41,346 nucleotides of DNA from a virus. The notes beneath the pieces are model-generated. The model saw only the letters and a list, made by a program, of their open reading frames with translations. It was not told the DNA's origin and did not search any database. A program made the translations under genes and the position numbers. Below, piece after piece: positions 5,158 through 34,286 of this stretch. Within the stretch, counting starts at the first letter, position 1. The number at the start of each line of letters is the position of its first letter. The stretch is from UHGV virus genome UHGV-0007810, one strand, 5' to 3'.

Positions 5158-5172
5158 TTACCGTTGAGGTAA
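5158..5172. promoter_or_regulatory. Operator-like palindrome TTACCGTTGAGGTAA
   Basis: Exact TTACC-N5-GGTAA, 20 nt upstream of the first gene of the leftward early operon. Confidence 0.55.
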
Positions 5173-5291: not shown

Positions 5292-5876
5292 TTATTGTTT
5301 GTTTTTTTCGTTCTGGTTGATGACAAATTCAATGTAACTTTCGATCTTTGCTTTCTCGGTTTCGGGTAACAATGCGTAGCGCGAGCGGTCATAGTTGATG
5401 GTCGCAGGGTCGTGCGGGTGAATCAGTAATTCATAGCCGTGACGCCCGAATGCGGATGCAACATTCTCCAGGGTGGAAATGGAAACGCTGACCTCATTGT
5501 TTAACAGGCGACTGATTGTCACCTGGGCGACGCCGGATGCGCGGTGAAGTTTTCCCTGCGTTGAAAGGTCGCGGCTTTCGCTCATCCAGCGTTCCAGGTT
5601 GTGAGCCGCCAGCTGACCAATGTCGCTTGGGCCGACAGGCTGAAAACCTTCCTGAGAAAGCGAGCGATCGATATCAAGCCAGTTACGGGGTTTATTGGCG
5701 GCAGCTTCAATTTTTCGTGCAACCTGGTCGCCGATAACCTTCTTGCCAAGAGCCCAGCGGTTTACCAGATTTGCCTGAGTTCCAAGTTTTTCTGCCATCC
5801 GCGTCTGAACACCATTGAATTCACGGTCGATCAAGTCGTTGAGATTTTGCCTGCGGACGTCCTGGATACTTTTCAT
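5292..5876 (-). CDS. CI-like phage repressor with two helix-turn-helix regions, no LexA-like peptidase domain
   Basis: 194 aa; HTH-like segments near the N-terminus (QTRMAEKLGTQANLVNRW) and the middle (ASGVAQVTISRLLNNE); divergent from the cro-like gene; no G-D-S-M / Ser-Lys cleavage-domain signature seen. Confidence 0.7.
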   Translation of the reverse strand: MKSIQDVRRQNLNDLIDREFNGVQTRMAEKLGTQANLVNRWALGKKVIGDQVARKIEAAANKPRNWLDIDRSLSQEGFQPVGPSDIGQLAAHNLERWMSESRDLSTQGKLHRASGVAQVTISRLLNNEVSVSISTLENVASAFGRHGYELLIHPHDPATINYDRSRYALLPETEKAKIESYIEFVINQNEKNKQ

Positions 5877-14076: not shown

Positions 14077-14153
14077 TGGCGTGGCATGCAGGATTCGAAC
14101 CTGCGACCAACCGCTTAGAAGGCGGTTGCTCTGTCCAACTGAGCTAATGCCAC
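14077..14153 (-). tRNA. tRNA-Arg (anticodon UCU)
   Basis: Reverse complement folds as a cloverleaf: acceptor GTGGCAT/ATGCCAC, D-stem GCTC/GAGC, anticodon stem ACCGC/GCGGT with loop CTTCTAA (anticodon TCT), T-arm GCAGG-TTCGAAT-CCTGC, discriminator G and CCA. Confidence 0.9.
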
Positions 14154-31338: not shown

Positions 31339-31884
31339 TTATTCCTTCCATTTATCAGAAAAAAGATCTTCTTCTAAAGGCATTGGTTCTGTTTTTGTTT
31401 TCTCAAAGAATTGATAACTGATAGTGATTGCTGCCTCTTTAAACTCTTCTTGCTCAGTTATGTTGTGGGCATCTGCGTCAACAAAAAACATAACCAGCGC
31501 ATCACGATTGTGATTTACCGAATAAACTAAAAAGCAATTACTTGTTGGTATGCATTTTACTTGCACAGACGCTATTTTTTTCCATGCATCCCAAGATGAT
31601 TTTTTACCAGTGTGTTTTTTATCACTATCTTCTGGAATATAGTCTTGGTTATCGACATGAGTATGCCTGACATTTAGTTTAAGCATTTCTGTCGGACGAG
31701 CAAATGCAGCATCTTTACCAAGAGATGGATGGTATCCCGTTTTCCAATACTGGGTAAAGGCATCAGATACTTTCTTCAGCTCAAGATCAGATGCACAAAG
31801 GGCCGAGAAATTTTGCGTATGCAATACTCGACCCTTATATCTGACAATTTGATTTTTATCATTCTGCGACGCAGACGAACTCAT
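31339..31884 (-). CDS. Hypothetical protein with possible YafO-like toxin domain (AT-rich moron)
   Basis: About 181 aa from ATG 31884 (AAGGAAA 5 nt upstream); visibly AT-rich relative to the surrounding DNA; GYHPSLGKDAAF...VRHTHV...FLVYSV resembles YafO-family toxins as recalled (unverified). Confidence 0.55.
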   Translation of the reverse strand: MSSSASQNDKNQIVRYKGRVLHTQNFSALCASDLELKKVSDAFTQYWKTGYHPSLGKDAAFARPTEMLKLNVRHTHVDNQDYIPEDSDKKHTGKKSSWDAWKKIASVQVKCIPTSNCFLVYSVNHNRDALVMFFVDADAHNITEQEEFKEAAITISYQFFEKTKTEPMPLEEDLFSDKWKE

Positions 31885-32038
31885 AATTTTCCTTATTGTT
31901 ACGAGAATCAAAGAAAGCGCGGGATACGCGACTTGCGTGATCTTTTGTCATAGTAACTTTTACGCACTCTACGCTTCCATTGAAAGAACGTCTTGCGGCA
32001 GCTTGCGCTCTACGCATCTGCAATTTTTCGTTTCGCAT
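31859..32038 (-). CDS. Hypothetical small basic protein (59 aa) upstream of the YafO-like gene
   Basis: Not in the ORF track; hand-translated MRNEKLQMRRAQAAARRSFNGSVECVKVTMTKDHASRVSRAFFDSRNNKENYEFVCVAE; GAGGT Shine-Dalgarno 7 nt upstream; overlaps the downstream gene by 26 nt. Confidence 0.3.
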   Translation of the reverse strand: MRNEKLQMRRAQAAARRSFNGSVECVKVTMTKDHASRVSRAFFDSRNNKENYEFVCVAE

Positions 32039-32098: not shown

Positions 32099-32113
32099 TT
32101 ACCCTTGAGGTAA
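32099..32113. promoter_or_regulatory. Operator-like palindrome TTACCCTTGAGGTAA
   Basis: Exact; in the promoter region of the leftward small-ORF / YafO-like unit. Confidence 0.55.
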
Positions 32114-32161
32114 TAGTACGCTATTCACCCACAGTCTGCAATCTGTACAGAATTATTTAAA

Positions 32162-32177
32162 GGCACATCCCTGTGCC
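32162..32177 (-). terminator. Terminator-like hairpin after the Bro-N gene
   Basis: GGCACA-TCCC-TGTGCC 9 nt beyond the stop, followed on the - strand by a T/A-rich stretch. Confidence 0.35.
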
Positions 32178-32185
32178 GCCGCCCG

Positions 32186-32881
32186 TCAGAAGAACCCTGC
32201 CTTGTCGTTGATGTACTCCGCGTGCGTCTGGATATCACGCAGGCATTTGCTCACACCGACGATGTAGCAGAACATGGTGGTCAGCTCCGCCGCCGCGCCC
32301 GATACGTCGTGCCCGTCGTCCTGTAACTGGTTCAGCAGATTCATCAGCAGTGAGTTCTCCGTCAGGCCGAGAACACCAGACGGCGAATGAATCAGGCTGC
32401 GGTAGCCGGGCTTCAGTGGGGCACTGTAGGTTTTGTTCTCTATCTTCATCGCCTGCATCACTGCTGATGCTGTGGCGTTGGCTACCTGGTCGGCAACCAT
32501 CTTTATGCGCTCTTCCTGCGGGAGCGAGTTTTTAATGTAACTTCCGGTGCGGCGGATCTGAGGAAGAACCTCACCTGTAACCCATTTACGAAAGCGGTAT
32601 GGGATAGTGCCTGGTGTCACTGCGTCGCGGCAGCGGAGGATCAGTGTGTAGAGGCCTGACTCGGAGATGATGATCGATTCTTGCTCACCGCCAGGGGTGT
32701 CGGTTGAAGCGACGCCCTTCTCATCATCATCAAGTTTTCGAACAGCATCTCGATGGTTTGCTATGCCTATAGCCCGACAAACATCTGAAGCGATAAACCA
32801 TGGCTCACCATTAATGACGATTACTCGTATATCGGCTTGGGATTCGAAAGAAAAAATGGACGTGCTTTTTGTAGCTGTCAT
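32186..32881 (-). CDS. Bro-N domain protein (antirepressor-like), C-terminal domain paralogous to 34029..34286
   Basis: 231 aa; N-terminal FESQADIRVIVINGEPWFIASDVCRAIGIANHRDAVRKL is a classic Bro-N signature; C-terminal ~70 aa align with the small LexA-box gene product. Confidence 0.75.
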   Translation of the reverse strand: MTATKSTSIFSFESQADIRVIVINGEPWFIASDVCRAIGIANHRDAVRKLDDDEKGVASTDTPGGEQESIIISESGLYTLILRCRDAVTPGTIPYRFRKWVTGEVLPQIRRTGSYIKNSLPQEERIKMVADQVANATASAVMQAMKIENKTYSAPLKPGYRSLIHSPSGVLGLTENSLLMNLLNQLQDDGHDVSGAAAELTTMFCYIVGVSKCLRDIQTHAEYINDKAGFF

Positions 32882-33150
32882 AGTGGTTACCTTTTAGTCA
32901 GGTTAATCACCACTACCGACGCCAATCGGTTGGTGGTGAACTGTGCAGGGTTGGCGTAACCGGCTAAAAGGACCCGGCGCACCTTTCGGTGCCCCCACAC
33001 AGCCCACCATAATACGAATGTGGCCGTGCTATACGCATAAAAAAACCGCTTGCGCGGTGAATGCGCCTTTTAGTAATCCGGGACGCCAATCCCGGCACTG
33101 GATTTTGCCAGTGCCCGATTACTATGGCACAAGAGGAGTGCAATGTAAAT

Positions 33151-33165
33151 TTACCGCAAAGGTAA
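33151..33165. promoter_or_regulatory. Operator-like palindrome TTACCGCAAAGGTAA
   Basis: Exact; in the divergent region between the Bro-N gene and the zinc-ribbon gene. Confidence 0.55.
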
Positions 33166-33243
33166 TGATAAACGCGGAGAAATATTAAAATCAACCGCAT
33201 TTGGTTGATTGCGTTTAACGCTTGATCACCTGAAAGCAAGATA

Positions 33244-33258
33244 TTACCTTTAAGGTAA
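33244..33258. promoter_or_regulatory. Operator-like palindrome TTACCTTTAAGGTAA
   Basis: Exact; 20 nt upstream of the ATG at 33279. Confidence 0.55.
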
Positions 33259-33278
33259 TGTTATTGTGAGGAAAAGCA

Positions 33279-34007
33279 ATGGAAGTTTTCTGGATAGTTG
33301 TTGGTGTTGTTACGGTGATTATTTACGTTATCAACCAGAACAGGACTAAGGTCTCTGATCGCACAGTCGTTAATCATCGCAAAACGATAAAGACCGAAGA
33401 TGGAGAAATAACGATTAATCGTACACAGGTGATAGACCACACCTCCACTCAGTTTCAAAAAACTGGAGGTAATGCGCCTAATATTTCCGCACCTCCTGCT
33501 TATGATAGTGCGGTAATCCAGACATATTATAAACAGCAGGAGTTAGCAAAAGAGAGGCAACTGATTCAGCCAAAGCCATTTACAGCAGAGCTTCCACCTG
33601 GAGTGTCAACGCGTCCGGCATATCATGGAAGATTCCCTGGTGATGACATATCGTCTCAGTCATCTAAAAAAGCACCTCAGGCAGTATCAGAGCCAGCAAG
33701 AATACCTTCTGTATCGCCGCCAAAAGAAGAATCAGCTAACAGAGTTTCAAGTGGTAGCAAGCAGTGCTTGCGATGCAGAATAAACCTTCCATATGAAAAA
33801 TTCAGGAAATCGTCAAAAAATCCAGATGGATTGACTAAGTGGTGTGCAAGGTGTCTCGATGGTCCAAAGAATACACGCCATATGAAGTGGTGCCCAATTT
33901 GTAATGTCCGCAGAAAACGAACCAGCTTTTACCCTAATAATCAAAATGCGGATGGCTTAATGGCATGGTGCAAAACGTGCTGGGACGAGCACAAAGCGAA
34001 ACGATAG
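33279..34007 (+). CDS. Membrane-anchored protein with tandem C-x2-C ... WC-x2-C zinc-ribbon-like repeats
   Basis: 242 aa; N-terminal TM helix (FWIVVGVVTVIIYVI), Pro/Ser-rich linker, two repeats CLRCR...DGLTKWCARC and CPICN...DGLMAWCKTC. Confidence 0.6.
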   Translation: MEVFWIVVGVVTVIIYVINQNRTKVSDRTVVNHRKTIKTEDGEITINRTQVIDHTSTQFQKTGGNAPNISAPPAYDSAVIQTYYKQQELAKERQLIQPKPFTAELPPGVSTRPAYHGRFPGDDISSQSSKKAPQAVSEPARIPSVSPPKEESANRVSSGSKQCLRCRINLPYEKFRKSSKNPDGLTKWCARCLDGPKNTRHMKWCPICNVRRKRTSFYPNNQNADGLMAWCKTCWDEHKAKR

Positions 34008-34030
34008 GCCGCTCTAGCGGCCTTTTCTTT
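34006..34030. terminator. Bidirectional terminator-like hairpin between convergent genes
   Basis: AGGCCGC-TCTA-GCGGCCT followed by TTTCTTT. Confidence 0.55.
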
Positions 34031-34286
34031 ATGTGGTTTGTTTTCGTAATTGTTCGGCACAATAGTCGAGATGTGTTTGCAAATCCTGCATAGACATCTG
34101 TGAGCTGGTGACGTAGTTAATCAGTGCAGTCAGTTCGGCAAGTGGGCCATCGACATTAAATCCATCCTTATCGAGATCCCGGAGTAATTTCATCAAGTGC
34201 GATCCCTCCACCAGTGACCTGACGCCTCCCGGCGTGTGAATCCTTTCGGTAAATCCGTCTTCCAGTGGATAGTGATACTGCTGCAT
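34029..34286 (-). CDS. Small protein behind a LexA box (candidate SOS-induced antirepressor)
   Basis: About 85 aa from ATG 34286 (GGAG 8 nt upstream); homologous to the Bro-N protein C-terminus; consensus LexA box 22-37 nt upstream of the start. Confidence 0.6.
   Translation of the reverse strand: MQQYHYPLEDGFTERIHTPGGVRSLVEGSHLMKLLRDLDKDGFNVDGPLAELTALINYVTSSQMSMQDLQTHLDYCAEQLRKQTT

Follow-up and report, generated by a model that had tools for sequence, protein, structure and literature searches.

Analysis of the virus genome UHGV-0007810 (41,346 nucleotides (nt); the whole of this stretch of DNA is referred to here as the window) points to an RNA module of known type immediately upstream of its Bro-N antirepressor gene. 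The interval between positions 32882 and 33150 is very probably the RNA part of a secondary immunity operon of the P1/P7 immI type, in which a processed antisense RNA, C4, blocks translation of the antirepressor whilst an isrK-like segment acts as a terminator-bearing decoy. Family membership, covarying structure, exact three-way complementarity, overlap of the b2 target with the ribosome-binding site, the terminator and the identity of the regulated protein were all obtained directly. An initial annotation of the interval had put forward two possibilities, a leader with a regulatory role at the 5′ end or a small RNA that controls expression of the antirepressor. These two suggestions fit together, since a terminator-bearing leader is combined with a C4-type RNA whose exposed loops are complementary to the Bro-N ribosome-binding region; the observation was real and its interpretation essentially right.

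The whole window was searched against Rfam 15, giving three matches above the gathering score. Two of these fall inside the interval and both are on the minus strand, the one that is sense for the Bro-N gene: an isrK-like RNA and a full-length C4 antisense RNA (Table 1). The former has the sequence and structure features that mark the isrK family (entered in Rfam as an Hfq-binding RNA), namely a score above gathering, two covarying 5′ hairpins and a Rho-independent terminator (detected by a terminator scan), and by itself it folds to the same shape as the family segment. It is the equivalent of the c4-a1b1 segment plus a terminator, and the GenBank record of phage phiV10 annotates a terminator at the homologous place. 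For C4, register with the annotated 77-nt C4 of P1 puts the predicted mature form, also of 77 nt, at 33008..32932. Folded alone, this 77-mer takes up the family structure, a long closing stem of 17 base pairs (bp) around two hairpins (27 pairs), as its minimum free energy conformation (-45.1 kcal/mol, 53% of the ensemble, z = -4.5), with the recognition sequences a′ and b′ unpaired.

The three perfect hairpins that the initial annotation had placed upstream of the Bro-N gene are all present, and each finds its place in one of these RNAs when read on the minus strand: GCACC-TTTC-GGTGC (32979-32992) is C4 hairpin 1, CCGGGA-CGCCAA-TCCCGG (33078-33095) is isrK hairpin 2 and CACTGG-ATTTT(G)-CCAGTG (33096-33113) is isrK hairpin 1. 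That first reading had missed the minus-strand intrinsic terminator, the 17-bp outer stem that closes C4, a predicted sigma-70-like promoter and a set of short target sequences that are repeated across the interval.

It is these repeats that tie the module together. Both a′ and b′ have exact complements upstream of C4, in the isrK-like RNA (a1 and b1), and downstream of it, ahead of the Bro-N gene (a2 and b2). The a1 and b1 sites occupy isrK nucleotides 26-32 and 42-49, respectively, matching the positions of a1 and b1 in P1, and the 3′ end of b2 lies 8 nt upstream of the Bro-N ATG. The composite pattern UUGGCGU-N(5-35)-CUAAAAGG is found exactly three times in 41 kb (0.00 expected), as a1b1, as a2b2 and as the complement of a′b′; no further C4 target with this a-b pattern occurs anywhere in those 41 kb. 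In the P1 GenBank record, the annotated a1, b1, 77-nt c4, a2 and b2 occupy positions homologous to those of the sites identified independently here. When the full-length leader is folded, a1b1 is paired in cis with a′b′. A hairpin sequestering the ribosome-binding site is also predicted in the window, formed by a conserved GGUGGUGA after a2 with the stretch before the AUG, but this helix is not cognate-specific across loci (919/10000 permutations).

Table 1. Features of the RNA module, its regulated gene and its predicted control sites in the window
Feature	Coordinates	Strand	Evidence and remarks
isrK-like RNA (RF01394)	33114..33039	-	Rfam, 77.9 bits (gathering score 50); covariation over 21 loci
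isrK hairpin 1	33114..33095	-	Sub-part of isrK
isrK hairpin 2	33094..33079	-	Sub-part of isrK; followed by linker and terminator
a1 site, UUGGCGU	33089..33083	-	In and around the loop of isrK hairpin 2; exact 7-nt complement of a′
b1 site, CUAAAAGG	33073..33066	-	isrK linker; exact 8-nt complement of b′
Intrinsic terminator, ACCGC-GCAA-GCGGU + U7	33058..33039	-	Terminator scan; part of the isrK model
Clamp helix, GCGCAU (33066..33061) with AUGCGU (33038..33033)	33033..33066	-	RNAfold of each locus
C4 antisense RNA (RF01695)	33014..32929	-	Rfam, 77.7 bits (gathering score 45); full-length, model positions 1-87
b′ recognition sequence, CCUUUUAG	32971..32964	-	Loop of C4 hairpin 2
a′ recognition sequence, ACGCCAA	32957..32951	-	Single-stranded junction of C4
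a2 target, UUGGCGU	32925..32919	-	4 nt downstream of the C4 Rfam span; exact complement of a′
b2 target, CUAAAAGG	32897..32890	-	Exact complement of b′; covers Shine-Dalgarno AAAGG
Bro-N antirepressor gene, 231 amino acids	32881..32186	-	Pfam PF02498, E = 2.3e-21; regulated gene
Proximal sigma-70-like promoter (predicted), TTTACA, 17 nt, TGc-CATAGT	33121..33149	-	Consensus scan; predicted start ~33114, isrK position 1
Distal promoter-like site, TTGATT, 18 nt, TATCAT	33165..33194	-	Consensus scan only; -10 touches operator; weak
Operator-like palindrome, TTACCGCAAAGGTAA	33151..33165		TTACC-N5-GGTAA; abuts proximal -35, at predicted start of distal promoter

Conservation was assessed over 21 loci, comprising the window, 19 diverse fetched loci and the P1 immI region. 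The isrK-then-C4 tandem is present in 20/20 fetched loci, with C4 starting 22-27 nt after isrK, whilst the P1 locus has c4-a1b1, with a weak isrK match (35.1 bits), in place of isrK. The initial annotation had proposed looking for conservation and covariation of the hairpins in relatives, and here the structures hold up well. In the C4 alignment 98.8% of cells are paired and both sides have changed in 11 pairs; in controls with slid partners the paired fraction is 31-51%, and 1-3 pairs show such double changes. For isrK hairpins 1 and 2, 93.6% of cells are paired and seven pairs are doubly changed. The most variable part of the alignment is the unpaired nucleotides. There are 12 distinct a′ and 19 distinct b′ sequences among the 21 loci, and these nevertheless remain matched to their own targets: a′ has an exact 7-nt complement in its own a2 in every locus and a 6-7 nt complement in its own a1, and b′ matches its own b2 over 6-10 nt in most loci. 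Cognate b2 matches have a median length of 8 nt; among non-cognate pairs the median is 4 nt, and just 1% of them come up to the cognate median. Compared with the window, Kp4865-1 and Tyrion have a different a and a b that differs by a single base. Such three-way covariation of a and b is the behaviour predicted for an RNA–RNA specificity system, and a ligand-binding leader would not display it.

How might such a module work? Minus-strand transcription would begin at about 33114, from a promoter lying beside a repressor operator, and a proportion of transcripts would stop at the terminator (33039), yielding a short isrK-like RNA that carries a1 and b1. Read-through RNA would contain the 77-nt C4, which resembles a tRNA acceptor and would then be excised; in P1, the 5′ end of C4 is cut by RNase P. 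In mature C4, b′ would be displayed by a hairpin loop and a′ by a single-stranded junction, leaving the two free to pair with a2 and b2 a short way downstream on the mRNA. Because b2 contains the Bro-N Shine-Dalgarno sequence, this pairing would block ribosome binding; in P1, such a block leads to curtailed downstream transcription. The antirepressor would thereby be kept off in the lysogen, as well as in incoming phages of the same a/b specificity. The a1/b1 copy would compete for C4, both in cis, while read-through RNA is still unprocessed, and in trans, in the form of the short RNA, and this competition would set the threshold at which the antirepressor escapes repression.

Several published observations bear on this scheme. 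The C4 RNA of P1/P7 represses ant by pairing around the ribosome-binding site and has an established role in heteroimmunity (PMC12197685, PMC8198154). In prophage Gifsy-1, IsrK supplied in trans increases antirepressor translation 139-fold (PMC4825925), and the compensatory pairs verified there (G28-C162 and G31-C159) fall exactly on a1:a′. In a Salmonella lysogen, both IsrK and STnc1160, an RNA from the C4 region, were transcribed at high levels under every condition tested (PMC7067206). Taken with the arrangement in the window, we consider that the isrK part probably titrates C4.

There are also points that weigh against an immI-type operon with an isrK decoy. The Rfam model for the P1 segment itself, c4-a1b1 (RF03163), matches the window at 33127..33075 with 45.1 bits (E = 1.1e-9), narrowly missing its gathering score of 46.7, although it is above threshold in P1 and four other fetched loci. 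Transcription, processing and repression in this phage, together with the decoy role of isrK, are deduced from homologues, and the promoter calls are consensus matches that occur at about the frequency seen in shuffled sequence (three found, 3.9 expected). The details may also differ from those of the characterised systems: P1 interposes icd, with translational coupling, and Gifsy-1 reportedly needs orf45, whereas here b2 lies directly on the ribosome-binding site of the antirepressor. Even in P1, the a1/b1 sites are labelled 'putative' in the GenBank record. Finally, in the Gifsy-1 model IsrK is an activator that works via a conformational switch and not by titration of processed C4 (PMC4825925).

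The last of these points brings in the main alternative, which draws part of its support from two further helices. The clamp helix (Table 1) encloses the terminator hairpin and its U-tract and can form in read-through transcripts only. Its mean energy is -8.3 kcal/mol with cognate partners and -5.3 kcal/mol with non-cognate partners, and 0/10000 permutations reach the cognate value. In addition, the leader ahead of C4 (33015-33031) can pair with the 5′ strand of C4 (32992-33009, minus strand), replacing its normal partner. Over the 21 loci this helix also prefers its cognate partner, the cognate value being reached in 5/10000 permutations. The clamp helix and the leader segment that mimics the 3′ strand of C4 are conserved but absent from both Rfam models.

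According to the authors of the Gifsy-1 study, activation results from a conformational switch coupled to translation of orf45 (PMC4825925). Transferred to the window, this would make the read-through leader a translationally silent conformer, with no need for a free C4 repressor, and we regard such a switch as a possible but rather doubtful explanation. The Gifsy-1 locus is a homologue (isrK 79.3 bits, C4 69 bits) in which the mechanism has been shown genetically; the cis pairing of a1b1 with a′b′ in the full-length leader of the window corresponds to the published 'structure A', and the cognate preference of the two alternative helices is in keeping with a switch. Coupling via a conserved upstream open reading frame (ORF) is, however, unlikely here, since the frame that starts at the AUG within C4 encodes 8-45 amino acids (aa) or is fused to the downstream gene, and its stop in the window leaves a gap of 21 nt to the ATG. 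Nor does a switch explain why a2/b2 and a′/b′ are exactly complementary in nearly every locus, or why b2 is sited on the ribosome-binding site, and Gifsy-1 itself accumulates a stable RNA, STnc1160, from the C4 region. The switch and the C4-decoy model are nonetheless compatible and not mutually exclusive: activation by IsrK is what a decoy for C4 would produce.

Returning to the immI-type operon, a more general proposal can be made tentatively, with the balance tipped slightly against it: that isrK, as a family, is one and the same element as the a1b1 segment in the c4 operon of P1, the short terminated form being a dedicated decoy, or anti-antisense RNA, for C4. If so, how much the antirepressor is expressed would depend on the balance between termination and read-through at 33039, and the 'activator' IsrK of Gifsy-1 and the 'repressor' C4 of P1 would be two halves of one widespread circuit, which would also take in the terminator clamp helix and the leader segment mimicking the C4 3′ strand. 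In the literature searched, no paper was found that states this unification of IsrK and C4, although the overlapping Rfam models already imply it.

A purely cis-acting leader, in the form of an attenuator or a riboswitch-like sensor of a metabolite or protein with no trans-acting RNA, is very unlikely. Such a leader would account for the presence of an intrinsic terminator, for several mutually exclusive helices and for a very stable fold: the 257-nt minus-strand leader has a folding energy of -110.7 kcal/mol, compared with -84.1 +/- 4.7 in dinucleotide shuffles (z = -5.7, 0/200 as good). The plus strand folds stably too (z = -4.65), as it should, being complementary to a structured RNA. Yet the region is fully covered by two strongly scoring small RNA families, and when 32100-34100 was searched permissively against Rfam, all that appeared besides isrK, C4 and c4-a1b1 were chance-level matches at E >= 0.19, with no riboswitch or leader family at E <= 10. 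The riboswitch-like option in the initial annotation receives no support, and the effector here is an RNA and not a metabolite. Recognition sequences that vary from phage to phage whilst staying complementary argue for RNA–RNA specificity and against a conserved ligand pocket, and repression in trans by C4 has already been shown for the P1 homologue. A tRNA-like gene in the leader was considered and ruled out, as ARAGORN finds only a tRNA-Arg at 14077-14153.

Least probable of all, to the point of being scarcely credible, is that the interval encodes small proteins (the 37-aa 'Ash family protein' of phage vB_EcoP_ZX5, a 35-aa orf45-like frame or an 81-aa plus-strand ORF) with the hairpins being incidental, for although GenBank coding sequences (CDSs) are annotated here ('ash family protein' in ZX5, 'similar to SF0880' in phiV10) and ORFs of 34 to 91 aa exist on both strands, neither frame nor length is conserved among homologues and the compensatory substitutions in the RNA stems would not be produced by coding constraint.

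The view that the interval contains only implausible ORFs is borne out by our results: no ORF in it has a Pfam match (the 81-aa plus-strand ORF was the sole one scanned), and the frame starting at the C4-internal AUG is not conserved in the 21 loci. The AUG itself is conserved and lies at the C4 5′ end; in work on Gifsy-1 the frame that it opens is known as 'orf45'. The length of this frame across the loci is 8, 14, 15, 31, 33, 35, 36 or 45 aa (35 aa in the window), except where it continues in frame into the gene that follows. As a coding frame it is not conserved. The cases in which the AUG is in frame account for several over-long or spurious CDS calls in GenBank. CDSs lying over isrK/C4 include the 'Ash family protein' of ZX5 and yong2 and the extended 'antirepressor' or 'regulator' genes of Stx1_14040 and cdtI. 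In coordinates of the fetched loci, CDS or miscellaneous features cover these RNAs at L024 1327-1440 (ZX5), L006 688-1371, L014 525-1673, L018 657-1679 and L001 3297-3364, and are probable misannotations. In Gifsy-1, the 'orf45'/STnc1160 region (L004 895-1135) is itself recognised by Rfam as a C4 RNA (69 bits), and the first AUG in it (nt 107) is the conserved one at the C4 5′ end. Beyond the paper annotating the APSE phages, we found none stating the equivalence of STnc1160 with C4 or that of isrK with the P1 a1b1 segment.

The regulated gene had been correctly called as Bro-N (Table 1). Its product is identical at 230 of 231 residues (99%) to ORF4 of vB_EcoP_ZX5, overexpression of which lowered prophage titre from 1e9 to 1e6 (~1000-fold) and repressor transcription by 75% (PMC9782041); the same paper names no small RNA. 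Overexpression of ORF4 pushed this sister phage toward lysis, and the Bro-N domain together with identity to ORF4 suggests an antirepressor role for the protein in the window. Across the 21 loci the genes downstream of the module encode Bro-N proteins, ORF6N proteins with or without P22_AR_C, Phage_pRha proteins, two small proteins with no Pfam match and, in P1, icd followed by ant, so that most are of antirepressor type. Enterobacteria phage PPyecE_EH1910 carries two complete isrK-C4 modules ~650 nt apart (L013 229-417 and 885-1073) with differing a and b sequences, which suggests two independently controlled antirepressor-type genes in tandem.

Upstream of the module, the predicted proximal promoter is spaced from isrK position 1 as in Gifsy-1, where promoter-driven transcription of isrK has been reported (PMC4825925). 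The nearest operator named in the initial annotation corresponds to a TTACC-N5-GGTAA palindrome at 33151-33165, which is kept at the same place in Kp4865-1, Tyrion, ST11-OXA245phi3.2, ZX5, phiV10 and TL-2011b. With up to one mismatch allowed, the motif occurs 17 times between 136 and 37722 of the window (0.77 expected), mostly in intergenic positions and throughout the prophage, and perfect copies are found at 5158, 5220, 5932, 8263, 8325, 11316, 14476, 32099, 33151, 33244 and 34363. With a 6-nt spacer the pattern gives 0 matches, the correct spacer being 5 nt. Four copies surround the gene for a 194-aa protein (5292..5876, minus strand) that has a helix–turn–helix domain only and lacks an S24 peptidase domain. 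This protein is the likely main repressor and may bind the palindromes, and the missing S24 domain would fit induction through an antirepressor. Upstream of the module, at 33189-33210, an inverted repeat, AATCAACC-N6-GGTTGATT, precedes a T-rich run on the minus strand and was picked up as terminator-like; it might shield the module from minus-strand transcripts arriving from upstream, or it might serve as a second site for protein binding.

Other genes of the prophage deserve brief mention. Downstream of the antirepressor gene, a 190-aa ORF (31339-31911, minus strand) matches the YafO toxin with 23.2 bits, below the cut-off of 25, and could represent an accessory gene of toxin-like type. A 242-aa ORF (33279-34007, plus strand), divergent from the RNA module, has an N-terminal hydrophobic segment, repeated CxxC motifs and a weak, sub-threshold match to Stc1 (E = 5e-4). 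It is found in TL-2011b, where it is annotated only as a misc_feature, and is absent from phiV10 and vB_EcoP_ZX5, and for this reason looks like an inserted accessory gene. The prophage also carries a tRNA-Arg(UCU) gene (14077-14153, minus strand), detected by ARAGORN and by Rfam (73.3 bits).

The window is an epsilon15/phiV10-like (Uetakevirus) prophage. Over 2 kb it shares 97.6% identity with phage TL-2011b, and two uetakeviruses, phiV10 and vB_EcoP_ZX5, are also close to it. Blastn with the 301-nt leader gives matches in 306 phage records; these take in many Stx-converting phages, Gifsy-1, APSE and phages of Klebsiella, Hafnia, Yersinia and Actinobacillus. Megablast gives matches in 941 of 5426 complete E. 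coli genomes. In nearly all cases the GenBank or RefSeq annotations listed under these matches name no RNA, and the RNAs are unannotated in the records of phiV10, TL-2011b and ZX5 and in the listed RefSeq E. coli genomes.

By every testable criterion the module belongs to the C4 and isrK families and has the arrangement of P1 immI, and is in that sense already known; indeed, the layout of isrK, C4 and Bro-N has been described and annotated in APSE phages (PMC7313666). The missing RNA labels represent an annotation gap and not a discovery, and nothing here challenges current understanding. Correct labels would, however, remove false small proteins from the databases, and the a/b sequences offer a readable 'immunity specificity' for each prophage, predicting cross-repression of antirepressors between co-resident or incoming phages. 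The sole mildly novel reading is that of IsrK ('activator') and C4 ('repressor') as the decoy and antisense halves of one circuit.

Among known systems, one parallel is with sar in the immI region of P22, where a small RNA likewise blocks antirepressor translation. However, sar is a true cis-antisense RNA made from the opposite strand, whereas the regulator in the window is encoded ahead of its target on one and the same strand and works by way of two short loops; no Rfam match to the sar family was found in the window. The same architecture is seen in the APSE phages of Hamiltonella (Rouil et al. 2020, PMC7313666; LR794149), in which isrK and C4 are followed directly by a Bro-N gene and a′ and b′ match the region upstream of that gene. 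Here the differences lie in the a/b specificity (UUCGCAU / CUAAACAGG), in the phage family and host, and in annotation, the RNAs being annotated in LR794149 but not in records of the phiV10 group.

The isrK-orf45(STnc1160)-anrP locus of Gifsy-1 (Hershko-Shalev et al. 2016, PMC4825925) shares with the window isrK and its terminator, a C4-like RNA and an antirepressor. The a site, UUGGCGU, is identical, and in both a1b1 pairs in cis with a′b′ in the read-through transcript. The Gifsy-1 antirepressor is an ORF6N protein, however, its b specificity differs and the reported requirement for orf45 translation has no conserved counterpart in the window; its locus adjoins antQ, whilst that of the window is located between virion-protein and tail-spike genes.

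A further comparison is with the immI operon of P1/P7, described as comprising promoters P51a/b, a1 b1, c4, a2 b2, icd and ant1/2 (Citron and Schuster 1990, as cited in PMC8198154; GenBank NC_005856). There are differences between the two. The window has no icd, so that b2 lies directly on the ribosome-binding site of the antirepressor, which is a Bro-N protein and not P1 Ant1/2; its a1b1 segment ends in a strong terminator (isrK 77.9 bits, compared with 35.1 in P1); and the phage is a small integrating podovirus, whereas P1 is a plasmid prophage. The a/b sequences also differ, and immunity specificity would be expected to differ with them. The shared features are nonetheless extensive. The elements occur in the same order on one strand, C4 has the same fold and the same predicted size of 77 nt, and a 7-nt a site and an 8-nt b site are found both upstream and downstream of it. 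In each case b2 falls on the ribosome-binding site of the first downstream gene (icd in P1) and is equally near its start, the placing of a2 agrees as well, and the distance from the end of C4 to the ATG is 48 nt in both. The two predicted promoters in the window are analogous to the tandem P2c4/P1c4 promoters annotated in P1, and its scattered palindromes resemble the dispersed C1 operators of that phage, where C1 controls one of the two c4 promoters. Both arrangements place a dispersed-site repressor operator (predicted in the window) at the promoter and have an antirepressor as the regulated product.

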